Of a stretch of 64,000 nt of DNA, positions 23,137 through 59,287 are shown piece after piece. The stretch covers positions 15,624,001 to 15,688,000 of the forward strand of contig OZ024757.1 in assembly GCA_964016885.1 (NCBI GenBank), given 5' to 3'. A program made the translations under genes and the position numbers. Source of the stretch: Eledone cirrhosa. Lineage: Eukaryota. The stretch's first letter is position 1; each line of letters begins with the position of its first letter. Under the pieces are notes generated by a model. It was not told where the DNA came from. It did not search any database and worked only from the letters and a program-made list of their open reading frames with translations.

Positions 23137-23313
23137 CCTGGATTCAGTTGGGGGTAACTACAGTAAGTAAGGTACTCAATACATAGCAGAGTATAAATGT
23201 TTAATATAGAAATGACTTTTACAGGACTAGAACTGTTTCATTCGAAGGAAATCATCAGGACGACTTCCTTCGAATGAAACAGTTCTAGTCTGGTAAAAGC
23301 CATTTCTATATTT
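23137..23313. mobile_element. Family L fold-back with a hammerhead-like fold at 23217-23261 (-)
   Basis: Arms ~23203-23256 and 23262-23312; minus strand CUGAUGA-U-UUC(CUUC)GAA-U-GAAA, stem III ACAG/CUGU, cleavage site GUA. Confidence 0.7.
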
Positions 23314-23348
<35 letters not shown>

Positions 23349-23545
23349 AATGTATGTATATGTATGTGTATATATAATGTATGTATATGTATGTAAATAA
23401 ATATATATATATCTGCAAAAGTTTTATTTAAAATTGTTGGGTTACAACAAGTAAATATTTTATAACCAATATAAAGCACTCGACAAGTTTTTGGAGTAGA
23501 TATACGATATTAAACAAATGGAAACTATATTTATAAAACCATATT

Positions 23546-23611
23546 TATTTCATTATACATATTTCAGGGATACCATATTAAAAATATGGCATGCCTTCGT
23601 CAGATAAAATA
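23546..23611 (-). ncRNA. Type I hammerhead ribozyme (family K, mirror copy)
   Basis: Reverse complement of 23707-23772. Confidence 0.85.
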
Positions 23612-23706
23612 CAATATATAAACAGTTTTATAAGCCAGCCTCCTATCTTAATGGTCGCTTATATTTATGGTACGTCAAAATTATTTATAAAACTGTTTAT
23701 ATATTG

Positions 23707-23772
23707 TATTTTATCTGACGAAGGCATGCCATATTTTTAATATGGTATCCCTGAAATATGTATAATGAAATA
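23707..23772 (+). ncRNA. Type I hammerhead ribozyme (family K)
   Basis: UAUUUUAU-CUGACGA-14-position stem II (AGGCAUGCCAUAUU/AAUAUGGUAUCCCU)-GAAA-UAUGUA-UA/AUGAAAUA. Confidence 0.88.
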
Positions 23773-24884
23773 AATATGGTTTTATAAATATAGTTTCCAT
23801 TTGTTTAATATCGTATATATATATCTATATATGTACAGGTCTAAAAACACCTGATTTCTTATAGATGAGAGTAACAGAGAGGAAATCTAGAAAGAGATAT
23901 AGAGGAAGAATCAACTCCAGTACTGGACTGATCCTTTTAAATAAAAAAAAAATGAAGAGCTATGTTGACCTCTACGACATTTGAACTCAGAATACAGAAA
24001 GCCAGAATCAATACTGCAAAGCATTTTATCTGATGTTCTAGCAACTCTGCCAACTCACCACCCCCTACTGTGCTACAATTCCTACACGATGATAGAATTA
24101 GGGGCCTAATGTAATGAAAATCCCGAATCTACATATATCTAACTTTGCAATCAACAATTCTGCTTGCGGGTCTGAGGTTATGAGAGGTTTTAATTGGTTC
24201 TCTGATGGTGAGTAATAAATGGGAGTGCAATTATTGTCGATGGTCAGAGCAGTGTTACAACAACAACAAAAAAACCCCCAAGGGTGCGAAGTAAGAATCA
24301 ATAGCTATTTGTTGATTGTCATTTGATCAAACGAACCTTGTTGGTTGAGTAATGACAATTGTAGTTTTTATGGGTCCTCGGGGAATTACATTGCGTGAAT
24401 AATAGTAATAGATCTAGCCTTGATCATTGCAGACACGTTCCGCTGTGGGACAAATGGTAAAACATTATAGTTAAATTTAATGCAAAGCAGACTTTATGTA
24501 TGGGCTAGATTTGCAGAGAAGGATCTGTCTGTCTGTTTGCCTGCCTGCCTGCCTGCCTGTCTATCTATCCATACATACATCCATCCATCCATCCATATAT
24601 CTATCTATTTATCTATCTAACTGTTTGTCTGTTTGCCTGCCTGACTGTTCTATCTATCTTTACATCCATCCATACATCTATACATCTATCCATATATCTA
24701 TCTATCTATCTATATAACCATACATCCATCTATCTATTTATCTATCTATCTATCTATCTATCTATCCATACATCCAACCATATATCTATCTATCTATCTA
24801 CCTGCCTGTCTGTTTGTTTGCCTTTCAGTCTGCTTGCCTACCTGCCTACTTTCTTTTCTGTCTGTCTGTCTGTCTGTCTATCTT

Positions 24885-26290: not shown

Positions 26291-26569
26291 ATATATATAT
26301 ATAGGACTGGTTGAGTCATAGATGCACTGTAGAGACATACTGCATGTTTTGGTTACTTTAAACCTGGTGGAGCCAATCCCCTCTCCAAGCCTGAATGCAA
26401 CCAATTTCTTCCAAACAAGGAGAGAGAGGGGGGGGGGGAGAAGTGAGAGAGAGAAGTGAGAGAGAGAGAGAGAAGTGAGAGAGAGAAGAGAGAGAGAGAG
26501 AAGTGAGAAAGAGAGATAGATATAATAGAATTAGTATTTAGCTTTGAGGAGCAGAGCTGTATACAGATA

Positions 26570-26860
26570 TGTATTGGAATGTTGTATTTCTAAAGAAATA
26601 TGGTATATTTATAAATAAACATTTAGAAAGCTGTAGCTATGTAAAAACACTAGTGGCTATCGCCACCTGGTGGTGTCCAGCAGAAGCAAGGGAGGACAAT
26701 CGTCGATACGCATTTCGAACTGATCGGTTCTCGTCAGAACGATCATCCCTCCCCCTTGCTTCTGCTTGACACCACAAGGTGGTGACAGCTGCTGGTGTTT
26801 TTGCATAGCTATGTCTTTCTAAATGTTTATTTATAAATAGAAATACGAAATTCCAATACA
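26570..26860. mobile_element. Family H fold-back with ~120-135 bp arms and a hammerhead as the loop
   Basis: Arms 26570-26704 and 26738-26860 are imperfect reverse complements. Confidence 0.85.
26699..26743 (-). ncRNA. Intact type I hammerhead ribozyme
   Basis: AUCGUU-CUGACGA-GAAC(CGAUCA)GUUC-GAAA-UGCGUA-UC/GACGAU; all core bases present, G10.1-C11.1 pair, AUC cleavage triplet. Confidence 0.9.
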
Positions 26861-27000
26861 CATATATATGAAAACAGTCAGGACTCTGATGGCTGAGCTC
26901 TGGCCATTTTGACAGCTAGATCTGAACTGTTGGCAAATTTCAGGAAGCATGGAAGTTTTAAAGAATGCAGTGTCTCTGCAAATAGAGATAATCTAAAGTA

Positions 27001-27239: not shown

Positions 27240-27275
27240 TCTTCTGATGAAGGACAAGCATCCGAAACGTTAAGA
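27240..27275 (+). ncRNA. Minimal type I hammerhead (family J; downstream tail also at 35151-35232 on -)
   Basis: UCUU-CUGAUGA-A-GGA(CAAGCA)UCC-GAAA-CG-UU/AAGA; palindromic ACGU stem III as in Penelope-type minimal hammerheads. Confidence 0.75.
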
Positions 27276-34690: not shown

Positions 34691-35138
34691 AGAATATTTT
34701 CGAAACAGCAAGCGGGTTTGAAATTATTATAAATGTAAGCTACCGCCGCATTTTGACTAAAGAAATTAAAGAAATTATTTAGCCTGATAGTGGGGTTAAG
34801 AACCCTCGGAGAAATGGAAAAAGATGAGTATTGACGTACATGGGAGTCGAAGCCACATCTTTGGTTATCCAGACCACTGTGCTACCATTTACACCAACAC
34901 ATCACCCGTCTTTTTCCATTCAAATTAGAAGCTATAAACTTAGTGACTCTAATGTCAAGTAAGAATATTTTCGAAACAGCGAGTTGATTTGAAATTATTA
35001 GAAATGTTAGCTATCGCCGTATTTTGACTAAAGAAATTAAAGAAATTATTTAGCCTGCGGGTTCTTAACCCCACTATCAGGCTAAATAATTTCTTTCATT
35101 TCTTTAGTCAAAATACGGCGATAGCTTACATTTATAAT
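34691..35138 (-). mobile_element. Family F element: partial tandem (271-bp period), inverted terminal copy and internal tRNA-like cloverleaf
   Basis: Direct repeats 34691-34786 and 34962-35057; inverted copy 35059-35138 ending at (TA)n. Confidence 0.75.
34832..34903 (-). pseudogene. tRNA-like cloverleaf (non-canonical, probably a Pol III promoter module)
   Basis: GATGTGT-TG-GTGT(AAATGGTA)GCAC-A-GTGGT(CTGGATA)ACCAA-AGAT-GTGGC(TTCGACT)CCCAT-GTACGTC-A. Confidence 0.7.
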
Positions 35139-38470: not shown

Positions 38471-38605
38471 CATATTGTCATTGCTCTCCTCTAGTCATGC
38501 TACACTACTGAGACAACTGTTGTACTAGTTCCTGCTTCAGAATTATGTCTATTCATATAAGAATATTAAAATCATTATCTACATATATATATATATATAT
38601 ATGTG

Positions 38606-38606
<1 letters not shown>

Positions 38607-38637
<31 letters not shown>

Positions 38638-40735
38638 GTTTAACGTCCATGTTCCACGCTTGCATGGGTTTGGACGGGAGTTTTCCCACTTGAGGCAAGA
38701 GTGGTTGTCTTGCTCGCATAGGACTGTCTGGCGGGTTTTCTACAGCTGGATGCCCTTCCTAACACCAACCACATTTACAGTGTGGGACTGGGAGGTTTTT
38801 ACCGTGTTGCCTACACGGCCACATTACAGCGTGGACTGTCTGGCGGGTTTTCTACAGCTGGATGCCCTTCCTAACACCAACCACATTTACAGTGTGGAAC
38901 TGGGAGGTTTTTACCGTGTTGCCTACACGGCCACATTACAGCGTGGACTGTCTGGCGGGTTTTCTACAGCTGGATGCCCTTCCTAACACCAACCACATTT
39001 ACAGTGTGGAACTGGGAGGTTTTTACCGTGTTGCCTACACGGCCACATTACAGCGTGGACTGTCTGGCGGGTTTTCTACAGCTGGATGCCCTTCCTAACA
39101 CCAACCACATTTACAGTGTGGGACTGGGAGGTTTTTACCGTGTTGCCTACACGGCCACATTACAGCGTGGACTGTCTGGCGGGTTTTCTACAGCTGGATG
39201 CCCTTCCTAACACCAACCACATTTACAGTGTGGAACTGGGAGGTTTTTACCGTGTTGCCTACACGGCCACATTACAGCGTGGACTGTCTGGCGGGTTTTC
39301 TACAGCTGGATGCCCTTCCTAACACCAACCACATTTACAGTGTGGGACTGGGAGGTTTTTACCGTGTTGCCTACACGGCCACATTACAGCGTGTACTGTC
39401 TGGCGGGTTTTCTACAGCTGGATGCCCTTCCTAACACCAACCACATTTACAGTGTGGGACTGGGAGGTTTTTACCGTGTTGCCTACACGGCCACATTACA
39501 GCGTGTACTGTCTGGCGGGTTTTCTACAGCTGGATGCCCTTCCTAACACCAACCACATTTACAGTGTGGGACTGGGAGGTTTTTACCGTGTTGCCTACAC
39601 GGCCACATTACAGCGTGGACTGTCTGGCGGGTTTTCTACAGCTGGATGCCCTTCCTAACACCAACCACATTTACAGTGTGGAACTGGGAGGTTTTTACCG
39701 TGTTGCCTACACGGCCACGTTACAGCGTGGACTGTCTGGCGGGTTTTCTACAGCTGGATGCCCTTCCTAACACCAACCACATTTACAGTGTGGAACTGGG
39801 AGGTTTTTACCGTGTTGCCTACACGGCCACATTACAGCGTGGACTGTCTGGCGGGTTTTCTACAACTGGATGCCCTTCCTAACACCAACCACATTTACAG
39901 TGTGGAACTGGGAGGTTTTTACCGTGTTGCCTACACGGCCACATTACAGCGTGGACTGTCTGGCGGGTTTTCTACAGCTGGATGCCCTTCCTAACACCAA
40001 CCACATTTACAGTGTGGAACTGGGAGGTTTTTACCGTGTTGCCCACACGGCCACATTACAGCGTGGACTGTCTGGCGGGTTTTCTACAGCTGGATGCCCT
40101 TCCTAACACCAACCACATTTACAGTGTGGGACTGGGAGGTTTTTACCGTGTTGCCTACACGGCCACATTACAGCGTGGACTGTCTGGCGGGTTTTCTACA
40201 GCTGGATGCCCTTCCTAACACCAACCACATTTACAGTGTGGAACTGGGAGGTTTTTACCGTGTTGCCTACACGACCACATTACAGCGTGGACTGTCTGGC
40301 GGGTTTTCTACAGCTGGATGCCCTTCCTAACACCAACCACATTTACAGTGTGGGACTGGGAGGTTTTTACCGTGTTGCCTACACGGCCACATTACAGCGT
40401 GGACTGTCTGGCGGGTTTTCTACAGCTGGATGCCCTTCCTAACACCAACCACATTTACAGTGTGGGACTGGGAGGTTTTTACCGTGTTGCCTACACGGCC
40501 ACATTACAGCGTGTACTGTCTGGCGGGTTTTCTACAGCTGGATGCCCTTCCTAACACCAACCACATTTACAGTGTGGGACTGGGAGGTTTTTACACGGCC
40601 ACATTACAGCGTGGACTGTGTGTTTTTTTTGTCGTGACACCTACACGATCTCATTTGTTTCGGCCTGGATGTTGTGGCACCAACGTAACTTTACATTGAA
40701 AGGGGCGGTGTGGATGGGGTGGGGGTGGTGTGACG
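38607..40735 (-). mobile_element. RTE-C 3' UTR expanded internally by a tandem array
   Basis: Flanks are collinear with the single-copy element at 56023-56463. Confidence 0.9.
38721..40619. repeat. 112-bp tandem array, 17 copies
   Basis: Period of 112 seen in both the ORF track and the sequence; last unit has a short deletion. Confidence 0.95.
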
Positions 40736-42729: not shown

Positions 42730-45700
42730 GAATAGAAGACTTCCCCTGGACAGGACACCAGTCTATCGTAGGGTTAAACAATCAGCTATTGTTGCTGGTA
42801 TTCATTTTTTACTGGAGCAACACGAAATGAAGTGTTTTGCTCAAGAACACAACACAGTTTAGAATAGAAGACTTCCCCTGGACAGGACACCAGTCTATCG
42901 TAGGGTTAAACCCTCAGCTATTGTTGCTGGTATTCATTTTTTACTGGAGCAACACGAAATGAAGTGTTTTGCTCAAGAACATAACACAATTGAGAATAGA
43001 AGACTTCCCCTGGACAGGACACCAGTCTATTGCAGGGTTAAACCCTCAGCTATTGTTGCTGGTATTCATTTTTTATTGGAGCAACACGAAATGAAGTGTT
43101 TTGCTCAAGAACACAACACAATTGAGAATAGAAGACTTCCCCTGGACAGGACACCAGTCTATCGTAGGGTTAAACCCTCAGCTATTGTTGCTGGTATTCA
43201 TTTTTTACTGGAGCAACACGAAATGAAGTGTTTTGCTCAAGAACATAACACAATTGAGAATAGAAGACTTCCCCTGGACAGGACACCAGTCTATTGCAGG
43301 GTTAAACCCGCAGCTATTGTTGCTGGTATTCATTTTTTATTGGAGCAACACGAAATGAAGTGTTTTGCTCAAGAACACAACACAATTGAGAATAGAAGAC
43401 TTCCCCTGGACAGGACACCAGTCTATCGTAGGGTTAAACCCTCAGCTATTGTTGCTGGTATTCATTTTTTACTGGAGCAACACGAAATGAAGTGTTTTGC
43501 TCAAGAACATAACACAATTGAGAATAGAAGACTTCCCCTGGACAGGACACCAGTCTATTGCAGGGTTAAACCCTCAGCTATTGTTGCTGGTATTCATTTT
43601 TTATTGGAGCAACACGAAATGAAGTGTTTTGCTCAAGAACACAACACAATTGAGAATAGAAGACTTCCCCTGGACAGGACACCAGTCTATCGTAGGGTTA
43701 AACCCTCAGCTATTGTTGCTGGTATTCATTTTTTACTGGAGCAACACGAAATGAAGTGTTTTGCTCAAGAACACAACACAATTGAGAATAGAAGACTTCC
43801 CCTGGACAGGACACCAGTCTATTGCAGGGTTAAACCCTCAGCTATTGTTGCTGGTATTCATTTTTTACTGGAGCAACACGAAATGAAGTGTTTTGCTCAA
43901 GAACACAACACAATTGAGAATAGAAGACTTCCCCTGGACAGGACACCAGTCTATTGCAGGGTTAAACCCTCAGCTATTGTTGCTGGTATTCATTTTTTAC
44001 TGGAGCAACACGAAATGAAGTGTTTTGCTCAAGAACACAACACAATTGAGAATAGAAGACTTCCCCTGGACAGGACACCAGTCTATTGCAGGGTTAAACC
44101 CTCAGCTATTGTTGCTGATATTCATTTTTTACTGGAGCAACACGAAATGAAGTGTTTTGCTCAAGAACACAACACAATTGAGAATAGAAGACTTCCCCTG
44201 GACAGGACACCAGTCTATTGCAGGGTTAAACCCTCAGCTATTGTTGCTGGTATTCATTTTTTACTGGAGCAACACGAAATGAAGTGTTTTGCTCAAGAAC
44301 ACAACACAATTGAGAATAGAAGACTTCCCCTGGACAGGACACCAGTCTATTGCAGGGTTAAACCCTCAGCTATTGTTGCTGGTATTCATTTTTTACTGGA
44401 GCAACACGAAATGAAGTGTTTTGCTCAAGAACACAACACAATTGAGAATAGAAGACTTCCCCCGGACAGGACACCAGTCTATCGTAGGGTTAAACCCTCA
44501 GCTATTGTTGCTGGTATTCATTTTTTACTGGAGCAACACGAAATGAAGTGTTTTGCTCAAGAACACAACACAATTGAGAATAGAAGACTTCCCCCGGACA
44601 GGACACCAGTCTATCGTAGGGTTAAACAATCAGCTATTGTTGCTGGTATTCATTTTTTACTGGAGCAACACGAAATGAAGTGTTTTGCTCAAGAACACAA
44701 CACAATTGAGAATAGAAGACTTCCCCTGGATAGGACACCAGTCTATCGTAGGGTTACACAATCAGCTATTGTTGCTGGTATTCATTTTTTACTGGAGCAA
44801 CACGAAATGAAGTGTTTTGCTCAAGAACACAACACAGTTTAGAATAGAAGACTTCCCCTGGACAGAACACCAGTCTATCGTAGGGTTAAACCCTCAGCTA
44901 TTGTTGCTGGTATTCATTTTTTACTGGAGCAACACGAAATGAAGTGTTTTGCTCAAGAACACAACACAATTGAGAATAGAAGACTTCCCCTGGACAGGAC
45001 ACCAGTCTATTGCAGGGTTAAACCCTCAGCTATTGTTGCTGGTATTCATTTTTTACTGGAGCAACACGAAATGAAGTGTTTTGCTCAAGAACACAACACA
45101 ATTGAGAATAGAAGACTTCCCCTGGACAGGACACCAGTCTATCGTAGGGTTAAACCCTCAGCTATTGTTGCTGGTATTCATTTTTTACTGGAGCAACACG
45201 AAATGAAGTGTTTTGCTCAAGAACACAACACAATTGAGAATAGAAGACTTCCCCTGGACAGGACACCAGTCTATTGCAGGGTTAAACCCTCAGCTATTGT
45301 TGCTGGTATTCATTTTTTACTGGAGCAACACGAAATGAAGTGTTTTGCTCAAGAACACAACACAATTGAGAATAGAAGACTTCCCCTGGACAGGACACCA
45401 GTCTATCGTAGGGTTAAACCCTCAGCTATTGTTGCTGGTATTCATTTTTTACTGGAGCAACATGAAATGAAGTGTTTTGCTCAAGAACACAACACAATTG
45501 AGAATAGAAGACTTCCCCTGGACAGGACACCAGTCTATCGTAGGGTTAAACCCTCAGCTATTGTTGCTGGTATTCATTTTTTACTGGAGCAACACGAAAT
45601 GAAGTGTTTTGCTCAAGAACACAACACAATTGAGAATAGAAGACTTCCCCTGGACAGGACACCAGTCTATTGCAGGGTTAAACCCTCAGCTATTGTTGCT

Positions 45701-46950
45701 GGTATTGATCTTTTACTGGAGCAACATGAAATGAAGTGCTTTGCTCAAGAACACAACACCATTGAGAATAGAAGACTTCCCCTGGACAGGACACCAGTCT
45801 ATCGTAGGGTTAAACCCTCAGCTATTGTTGCTGGTATTCATTTTTTACTGGAGCAACACGAAATGAAGTGTTTTGCTCAAGAACACAACACAATTGAGAA
45901 TAGAAGACTTCCCCTGGACAGGACACCAGTCTATTGCAGGGTTAAACCCTCAGCTATTGTTGCTGGTATTGATCTTTTACTGGAGCAACATGAAATGAAG
46001 TGTTTTGCTCAAGAACACAACACAATTGAGAATAGAAGACTTCCCCTGGACAGGACACCAGTCTATCATAGGGTTAAACAATCAGCTATTGTTGCTGGTA
46101 TTCATTTTTTTACTGGAGCAACATGAAATGAAGTGTTTTGCTCAAGAACACAACACAATTGAGAATAGAAGACTTCCCCTGGACAAGACACCAGTCTATC
46201 GTAGGGTTAAACCCTCAGCTATTTTTGCTGGTATTCATTTTTTACTGGAGCAACATAAAATGAAGTGTTTTGCTCAAGAACAAAACACAATTGAGAATAG
46301 AAGACTTCCCCTGGACAGGACACCAGTCTATCGTAGGGTTAAACCCTCAGCTATTGTTGCTGGTATTCATTTTTTACTGGAGCAACATGAAATGAAGTGT
46401 TTTGCTCAAGAACACAACACAATTGAGAATAGAAGACTTCCCCTGGACAGGACACCAGTCTATCGTAGGGTTAAACAATCAGCTATTGTTGCTGGTATTC
46501 ATTTTTTACTGGAGCAACACGAAATGAAGTGTTTTGCTCAAGAACACAACACAATTGAGAATAGAAGACTTCCCTTGGACAGGACACCAGTCTATCATAG
46601 GGTTAAACAATCAGCTATTGTTGCTGGTATTCATTTTTTTACTGGAGCAACATGAAATGAAGTGTTTTGCTCAAGAACACAACACAATTGAGAATAGAAG
46701 ACTTCCCCTGGACAGGACACCAGTCTATCGTAGGGTTAAACCCTCAGCTATTTTTGCTGGTATTCATTTTTTACTGGAGCAACATGAAATGAAGTGTTTT
46801 GCTCAAGAACAAAACACAATTGAGAATAGAAGACTTCCCCTGGACAGGACACCAGTCTATCGTAGGGTTAAACCCTCAGCTATTGTTGCTGGTATTCATT
46901 TTTTACTGGAGCAACATGAAATGAAGTGTTTTGCTCAAGAACACAACACA
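42730..46950. repeat. 132-bp tandem array, 32 copies
   Basis: GAATAGAAG at 42730 and 46824 is 31 x 132 + 2 apart (two single-T insertions). Confidence 0.95.
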
Positions 46951-46990
46951 CACCTAGTCCAGGAATTGAACCCATGACATTGTGATCAGC

Positions 46991-54844: not shown

Positions 54845-55480
54845 CTGTTTATTTACCATATTTCTAATGAAAGACACTGCCTATGAATTTCAAATAATTC
54901 TAAAATTAATGAAGAATTTGGATGAATTTAGTAATATAACTAACTTTCTCATTATTAATCTGCTGGTGTTTGGAACATGACTTAAATGTTCTTACATAAA
55001 TTTATGATAGGAGGATTTTATATTAATATAAACATTTCAACCCATTTGTTACAATATTTTTAATGGAAGATACAGGCTATGATTTTCAAATTCTGAAAAT
55101 AATCAAGAATCTAGAGGGATTTAGTAATATAACTGACTTTCTCATTATTAAGATGGTGTTTGGAATACAACAAACATTTTTAGATAAATATAAACACATT
55201 ATAATATTTAAAAGAAAAACACTGCCTACAGGTTTCAAATAGTTTTGAAAATAATCAAGAATTTAGAGGGATTTAATAATATAACTGACTTTCTCCTTAT
55301 TAAGCTGGTGTTTAGAATTGGAACATGATTTAAAGTTGTTCTTACATGAAATTATGGGAAGGTTTTTAGATAAATATAAACCCTTTAACCTTTTCATTAC
55401 AATTGGAGGTGACCACAGTTAAAAAAGGGACTCAATACATTAGTAATTGTATAGGCATCTTTATTTTATATAGAAATGTT

Positions 55481-55525
55481 TTCTACAAGACTAGAACTGT
55501 TTCATTCATATGAAATCATCAGGAA
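55481..55525 (-). ncRNA. Type I hammerhead (family L)
   Basis: UUC-CUGAUGA-U-UUC(AUAU)GAA-U-GAAA, stem III ACAG/UUGU, cleavage site GUA, then GAA. Confidence 0.65.
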
Positions 55526-58519: not shown

Positions 58520-59287
58520 TAATCTATTTACATGTACTCCTCTGATGAAGGACTAAAGTCTAATTCAAAGAACTTGAAACCCATATCTCTTGAATTCTCA
58601 GCTGAGAATTCAAGAGATACAGGGCTCAGTCCATCTTACCAGCTGCTGGCCACATTTTTCAGCCCCTAGCAGTATTTCACCTAATTTTCTAAAGTAATTA
58701 TTATTTACAGATATTGACGGTTTTTAGTCATTTTCTGCATTTGGAGTCCCACATTTCATATATACATATATGTATGTAAATATATATATACATATATGTA
58801 TGTATATATATACATATACATATATGCATGTGTGGGTAAATTCTTATTTGTTGTGCTCATAATTTTGGCATTTTTATACTGGTTGGATGTCCTTCCTAAC
58901 ACCAGCACCACTTTACAGCATGGATTGGGTGCTTTTATTCGTGCCTCTAACACTAGAGAGGTTGTCTTACTGGACTCAGGGACCCTCTTTACCCCTCCAT
59001 TTTACAGCATGGACTGGGTGCTTTTATTTATGCCACCAGCACTAGGGAAGTTGTCTTACTGGACTTATGGGACTTCTCTACCCCGCACCAATTTATTCGG
59101 AGTGGTAGCTCTCCTAGATGAGTTGCCTCCGTCCGCCCTTGTCTGTTCTCTCTCTCTCTCTATATATATATATGCATATATATGTATTTCCATATATATG
59201 TACATAAATATATATACATATATATGTATGTACATATATATGTATATAAGCATGTATGCATGTGTGTGGTGGTGAATGTATGTAAGG

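Follow-up and report, generated by a model that had tools for sequence, protein, structure and literature searches.

Non-LTR retrozymes of metazoans consist of short repeats, of 350-390 bp in mussel and 330-350 nt in axolotl (Cervera and de la Pena 2020, PMC7229834), and PLEs are named there only as strong candidates for moving them. A 2026 preprint adds that PLEs and retrozymes co-occur and presents a phylogeny of pseudo-LTRs (bioRxiv 10.64898/2026.07.22.740005). PLE insertions are described as carrying partial tandems, an adjacent inverted 5'-truncated copy, a tail of 30-40 bp and a bias towards microsatellites (PMC8557442, PMC3846280); PMC8557442 still terms the origin of the inverted structures undefined, and PMC3846280 favours self-priming over two-ended priming. 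In vitro, a PLE protein cleaved and extended both strands, and reverse transcription began at two internal positions, one on each side of the tail (PMC11167929). Chlamydomonas MRC1 and Chlamys-N4 are non-autonomous PLEs that are moved in trans (PMC8557442, PMC9977147).

Within a 64,000-nt stretch of the Eledone cirrhosa genome (the window), a hammerhead core forms the loop of a long hairpin. Our analysis indicates that this hairpin is, with a probability of about 0.87, a by-product of the PLE-type insertion of a retrozyme-like element and not a selected RNA structure.

The repeat family to which the locus belongs resembles metazoan non-LTR retrozymes in its short non-coding unit (342 nt, within the range of 150-450 bp, with GC under 45%), in its single type I hammerhead per unit with a weak palindromic helix III, and in the presence of tandem and dispersed copies in a genome that also contains PLEs. 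It differs from them in that only dimers and partial tandems were seen here, and in the high frequency of inverted 5' copies and tails, whereas the word "inverted" is absent from the main text of PMC7229834. With EN+ PLEs the family shares 5' truncation, partial tandems, an inverted truncated neighbour, a type I hammerhead, a tail of 30-40 nt at one end and a microsatellite target bias; unlike these elements, its unit has no RT or GIY-YIG ORF and repeats on itself. Non-coding, head-to-tail, 5'-truncated insertions into microsatellites are likewise formed by MRC1 and Chlamys-N4 (PMC8557442, PMC9977147), but a known autonomous partner has 3' sequence in common with them, whereas here a partner is suggested by two chimeras only, and their clade is reported in those texts to be without canonical hammerheads, of which the 342-nt family has one. 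As in the dimer-requiring hammerheads of newt and axolotl satellites and of PLEs (PMC7229834, PMC4209133), a short palindromic helix III can pair between copies; the window copy differs in being a single ribozyme, for which a dimer could form only in trans.

Structure of the hairpin locus

Thermodynamic folding of a 331-nt stretch gave -163.9 kcal/mol, compared with -70 ± 4.6 for shuffled sequences (z = -20.3; 0 of 100 shuffles as good), and confirmed that the locus is a single long hairpin with the ribozyme as its loop. The initial annotation had placed this feature at 26570..26860, as a hairpin of ~130 bp. Its arms, about 130-145 nt long, are imperfect: 109 of 146 alignment columns match, 19 are mismatched, and two gaps measure 3 nt and 15 nt. 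The feature reaches further than was first marked, and unpaired family sequence continues to 26526. The forward copy together with the core is 92% identical to the family column majority. Its outer end lies at +184 from the cut site, and that of the inverted copy, which carries a 15-nt internal deletion, lies near +146, as read from the arm alignment. At the junction, the letters GCAAG/GGGA are shared by the inverted copy and the native 5' strand of stem I, and a 3-nt GAT duplication is also present. No ORF of at least 110 aa was found over the locus, and the adjoining GA/TA microsatellite is likely to be the target site.

Features of the hairpin locus (window positions; strand as read for each feature)
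Feature	Position	Strand	Basis or remark
Type I hammerhead core	26705..26737	-	Sequence, coordinates, family comparison
CUGACGA of core	26737-26731	-	
Stem II	26730-26727 with 26720-26717	-	
Loop II	26726-26721	-	Altered relative to family, one base shorter
GAAA of core	26716-26713	-	
Near-palindromic helix III, AUGCGUAU	26713-26706	-	
C17	26705	-	
5' arm of hairpin (minus strand)	about 26738-26869		Fold and arm alignment
3' arm, forward-copy part pairing with inverted copy	26561..26704	-	
Forward copy of 342-nt family, 3' of cut site (+1 to about +184)	26526..26704	-	
Unpaired 3' extension, 3' arm only	26526..26560	-	Matches PLE "tail" of 30-40 nt
Junction zone, inverted copy to native 5' strand of stem I	26738..26759	-	
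Inverted 5'-truncated second copy, about +9 to +146	26750..26866	+	Hairpin's 5' arm on minus strand
GA/TA microsatellite beside 3' end	26420..26525	.	

An assembly artefact was rejected, as the arms differ at 19 positions and by two gaps and one short-read contig crosses the junction. This 152-nt contig covers 26678-26829, thus the core, the junction and some of the left arm, and is identical to the window there; it comes from a comparison of three runs, contigs of one sample, and its run may be the assembly's own sample.

The core letters are exactly those that had been read from the minus strand (CUGACGA, GAAC/GUUC with loop CGAUCA, GAAA, UGCGUA and UC), and the type I assignment is upheld by CUGANGA, GAAA and NUH together with stems I-III, stem I being open. 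The predicted cut had also been placed correctly, between 26705 and 26704 on the minus strand, and stem I runs on into both hairpin arms as described. An Rfam search at gathering and E-value thresholds returned no hammerhead family match for the window copy, nor for seven other loci (five exact-core loci of the family, one of a sister family and one other hammerhead-like fold-back); the hammerhead is therefore identified by its stems and its conserved core letters. Rfam miRNA matches were discounted, being below threshold and reflecting hairpins or microsatellites.

RNA folding placed the hammerhead fold of the window copy 5.4 kcal/mol above the minimum, with a pairing probability of 0.02 for stem II; among 28 core-intact family copies the corresponding gap had a median of 3.5 and a range of 1.1-10.0 kcal/mol. 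Furthermore, the window copy has a damaged helix III, its form being found in 1 of 217 family motifs. The folding suggests that the RNA of the window copy misfolds. Since three-way junctions are poorly handled by folding programs, this does not show that its ribozyme is inactive.

Across the family, the helix III palindrome occurs as AUGCAU (114 of the 217 motifs) and, with a different length, as AUGCGCAU (20 motifs), and pairing of helix III between two copies is predicted to give duplexes of -4.7 to -10.5 kcal/mol. The earlier remark that a near-palindromic stem III points to cleavage as a dimer thus gains support at the family level, where the palindrome is real and, by these predictions, would favour dimers. 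Of nine Xenopus dimer elements, one cleaved (bioRxiv 10.64898/2026.07.22.740005), and tertiary contacts between loops 1 and 2 are mostly absent in the mussel retrozyme (PMC7229834).

The 342-nt repeat family

Relatives of the locus, each unit with one hammerhead, are dispersed over hundreds of sites in the 3.0-Gb genome. The 24-nt core pattern with at most one mismatch gave 394 genome matches and a control gave 0; at first look, two genome searches had returned 2239 and 3792 candidate relatives. Natural tandems define a head-to-tail unit of 342 columns, and 21 full natural monomers measured 324-352 nt, with a GC content of 33-40% and 88-96% identity to the column majority. Natural dimers occur at L002, L026 and L033, and the best-scoring candidates included dimers with near-intact cores at L033 and L037. 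A forward run longer than one unit was found in 55 of 172 insertions; arrays beyond about two units were not seen among the best-scoring candidates, and 2 of the 172 forward runs exceeded 684 nt. Three natural monomers folded as circles gave z = -6.3, -4.9 and -2.6, with 54-58% of bases paired.

Apart from the ~30-nt imperfect stem I, native copies have no reverse complement of the downstream arm upstream of their core. Most family copies are without long arms around the core, an outcome that the initial annotation had named as refuting its reading. The locus is a decayed copy with the layout of a non-LTR retrozyme.

Two sets of insertions were picked without regard to the hairpin, and their copies were delimited with two profiles, one for the forward and one for the reverse orientation. 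Set A comprised all 93 exact matches to the 24-nt core, which represent 90 distinct contexts and 88 insertions. Set B was drawn from the first 100 of 175 exact matches to the 3' motif and comprised 92 insertions, after 10 loci on other contigs that had entered via earlier searches were dropped.

Inverted copies and the origin of the hairpin

An inverted 5'-truncated copy lies upstream in 38 of the 88 insertions of set A and in 52 of the 92 of set B. The inversion junctions are scattered across the unit, most of them are out of register, and the unpaired loops that they close can reach several hundred nt. Measured from the cut site, the 3' ends of copies cluster around +144-151 and +176-185, and the outer ends of an inversion usually differ by about 35 nt. 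There were 84 distinct inversions; both ends could be classed in 57, and 44 of these combined one short with one long end (Fisher p = 5e-5), a rule that the window copy obeys with its forward end at +184 and its inverted end at about +146. The inverted arm was the longer one in 22 of the 57. A dinucleotide repeat starts 41 of 101 family 3' flanks, against a background of 6% in the window. The family thus bears the marks of PLE insertions: partial tandems, 5' truncation, an inverted truncated neighbour, a tail at one end and a microsatellite target.

Long inverted arms, the lack of an ORF and AT-rich flanks could also point to a MITE-like DNA transposon with terminal inverted repeats of ~130 bp and a hammerhead present by chance. 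The probability of this explanation is close to nil, as inverted arms are absent from half of the insertions, neither arm length nor junction is constant, 5' truncation and tandem copies occur, and the outer ends differ systematically; terminal inverted repeats that are not fixed across copies refute it. Movement of the fold-back as a unit was likewise rejected, because L002, L003, L007, L121 and the window copy differ in junction or outer ends. The exact junction pattern of the window occurs once in the 3.0 Gb.

According to the initial annotation, self-cleavage would open the ribozyme loop and leave a nicked duplex, serving as a replication or priming intermediate or as a source of dsRNA. 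Such a functional hairpin RNA, or one retained by the host to supply dsRNA or siRNA, would agree with the intact core letters, the long arms and the recurrence of fold-backs with a ribozyme loop, and any transcribed fold-back could supply small-RNA pathways. Small RNAs derived from PLE copies are reported in PMC3846280. The unique junction, the scattered joins and the decay of the arms without respect to pairing do not support hairpin and ribozyme as a functional unit. If the ribozyme-strand RNA were under selection, G·U should outnumber A·C among the arm mismatches; in 85 fold-backs, the arms held 290 G·U and 296 A·C mismatches on this strand (p = 0.84). In the window arms between +26 and +73, 10 of 11 mismatches break the pairing and 1 of 11 is G·U. 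Arm decay is neutral. Derived variants shared by the two arms were found in 268 columns, compared with at most about 80 if the arms were independent, which is expected when both arms are copied from one template, although the excess may partly reflect subfamilies or CpG hot spots.

Evidence on the cut site points the same way. None of 147 5' ends fell within -2..+4 of it, where 3.0 would be expected under a uniform distribution, and it was rejected as a priming or stop point; in another set, 1 of 40 inverted inner ends lay there. The proposed replication or priming intermediate is therefore not supported; a source of dsRNA or small RNA is conceivable. The absence of 5' ends at +1, together with the runs longer than one unit, shows that cDNA synthesis passes the cut site, as it would on a circular template or an uncut multimer. 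Together with the wide gap to the hammerhead fold, the weakly paired stem II and the damaged helix III of the window copy, these results make a functional hairpin very improbable.

Joins that fall in register at stem I were more frequent than expected in set A (4 of 38; permutation mean 0.58; p = 0.0007) and in the union of the sets (5 of 84; permutation mean 0.98; p about 0.002), but not significantly so in set B alone (2 of 52; permutation mean 0.47; p = 0.07). The register window was picked post hoc, L003 lies 4 nt off register and L180 is ambiguous, and the excess is therefore a lead. A looser class, with the ribozyme in a short loop, was weakly enriched (7 of 38, 5 of 52 and 10 of 84; p = 0.01, 0.14 and 0.04), one of the seven cases in set A, L129, appearing to be mis-parsed. 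By their sequences, the in-register loci look like independent events that differ in their switch points or outer ends. Microhomology at 52 insert-free joins averaged 1.6 nt, against 0.7 nt in permutations, an estimate inflated by junction optimisation, and inserted bases were present at 33 of 85 joins.

The insertion pathway that we propose would begin with transcription of tandem source loci. The hammerhead, probably as a dimer, would cut out monomers that may circularise, and the RT-GIY-YIG protein of a PLE would cut AT-rich or microsatellite DNA. Both strands of the break would then prime cDNA, with starts at about +146 and about +185 of the RNA, and two incomplete cDNAs would join at short homologies. 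Those halting on either side of the core could anneal at stem I, because stem I is a natural imperfect inverted repeat of ~30 nt, and such annealing would yield a fold-back whose loop is one hammerhead, the arrangement of the window copy. There, the switch falls in letters shared with the native 5' strand of stem I, so that the ribozyme becomes the loop. A wider model, in which PLEs insert animal non-LTR retrozymes by two-ended priming on circular or multimeric RNA, the two cDNAs join at self-complementary parts of the RNA, stem I is a hot spot for fold-backs and the PLE subfamily of the chimeras described below is the partner, is tentative, its chances falling a little short of even.

The same element might also have produced its fold-backs by self-priming, one cDNA or antisense RNA folding back at stem I and copying itself. 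Self-priming has been proposed for PLE inversions with palindromic junctions (PMC3846280), and it likewise predicts in-register joins at stem I and variants common to both arms. We consider it unlikely, as the junctions are mostly out of register with large unpaired loops, and a copied-back arm could hardly be 35 nt longer than its template, yet the inverted arm was the longer in 22 of 57 inversions. We are less certain of two-ended joining over self-priming than of the hairpin as an insertion by-product.

PLE enzymes, chimeras and related repeats

The genome contains 10,597 candidates for GIY-YIG or PLE sequences, and ORFs with an RT and, at the C terminus, a GIY-YIG domain were found elsewhere in it at L266, L267, L269 and L279. 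Two of these, L266 1275-4562 and L267 2809-5622, have 1096 and 938 codons between stops, and the PLE families that they represent may be recent. At L271 and L274, coding PLE fragments stand head-to-head in an inverted arrangement, with an architecture like that of the non-coding fold-backs.

Chimeras of retrozyme and PLE sequence were found at two loci, L300 (position 7521; G000:C1 near 147,550,520) and L301 (position 1394; G000:C14 near 26,522,190). In each, the retrozyme run ends at +101 or +102 and is followed on the same strand by a 5'-truncated PLE; these joins fall just inside a motif that is conserved in the sister families. The two PLEs are 72% identical in their 3' non-coding region and are truncated within the ORF, at different points. 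No remainder of the retrozyme followed either PLE within the 7 kb of sequence covered. This arrangement would fit a template jump by the PLE RT; alternatively, it could reflect nested insertion of a PLE with loss of the retrozyme remainder.

The adjoining PLE coding sequence at these two loci could also be taken to mean that the 342-nt unit, instead of being an independent non-autonomous element, represents a solo pseudo-LTR whose autonomous PLE is undiscovered. Type I hammerheads occur in PLE pseudo-LTRs (PMC4209133), and homology to pseudo-LTRs is described for Xenopus retrozymes (bioRxiv 10.64898/2026.07.22.740005). This relationship is nevertheless improbable here: the unit closes end-to-start on itself in natural tandems, the first 60 of the 76 junction-abutting flank matches listed contained no shared coding flank, and the PLEs of both chimeras begin at differing points inside the ORF. 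No autonomous PLE with the 342-nt unit as its pseudo-LTR was found among 48 of the 10,597 candidates (44 loci with GIY-YIG or PLE sequence and 4 further stretches), which counts against the PLE-type insertion proposed here.

The PLE marks on retrozyme copies and the two chimeras provide genomic support for the mobilisation of retrozymes by PLEs, and the evidence of this family on an open mechanistic question is moderate. The hairpin itself is ordinary, and the family may be of modest importance. A literature search, with supplements and subscription journals outside its scope, found inverted copies and tails described on no animal retrozyme, and such a description may exist. With its tails, inversions, read-through and chimeras, the short family supplies a defined small RNA together with a candidate enzyme for work in vitro.

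A non-coding sister family (L281-L299; for example L290 1920-2160), recognised through a 37-nt match in L241, has a unit of ~330-343 nt and agrees with the 342-nt family in its 3' motif and in its short and long 3' ends. The hammerhead-like core of the sister family, UUGAUAA with a long palindromic helix III, is by our reading a U3-A8 form and might cleave as a monomer. L237 2430-2860 belongs to a different fold-back family, in which a hammerhead-like core is duplicated in both arms and the 3' motif is related to that of the 342-nt family (68% over 130 nt). At L272 (1767-2389 and 3728-4012), a fold-back of the 342-nt family apparently occurs in duplicate at a distance of 1.76 kb, and a long TA tract lies close by.

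Several other repeats were noted in the window. Small fold-backs or fragments with CUGANGA cores, of different families, lie at 23200-23320, 23497-23821 and 55470-55525, and the fold-back junction at 23220-23290 lies inside the hammerhead core itself. The stretches 38600-40700 and 42863-46977 are tandem arrays that repeat about every 112 nt and 129 nt, as deduced from repeated ORF translations. On the minus strand, tRNA-like Rfam matches at 1225-1290 and 34832-34903 are probably the heads of tRNA-derived SINEs. Minimal hammerhead-like motifs were also found at 27244-27267 and 58542-58579, the former with a palindromic AACGUU helix III as described for the minimal hammerheads of PLEs.
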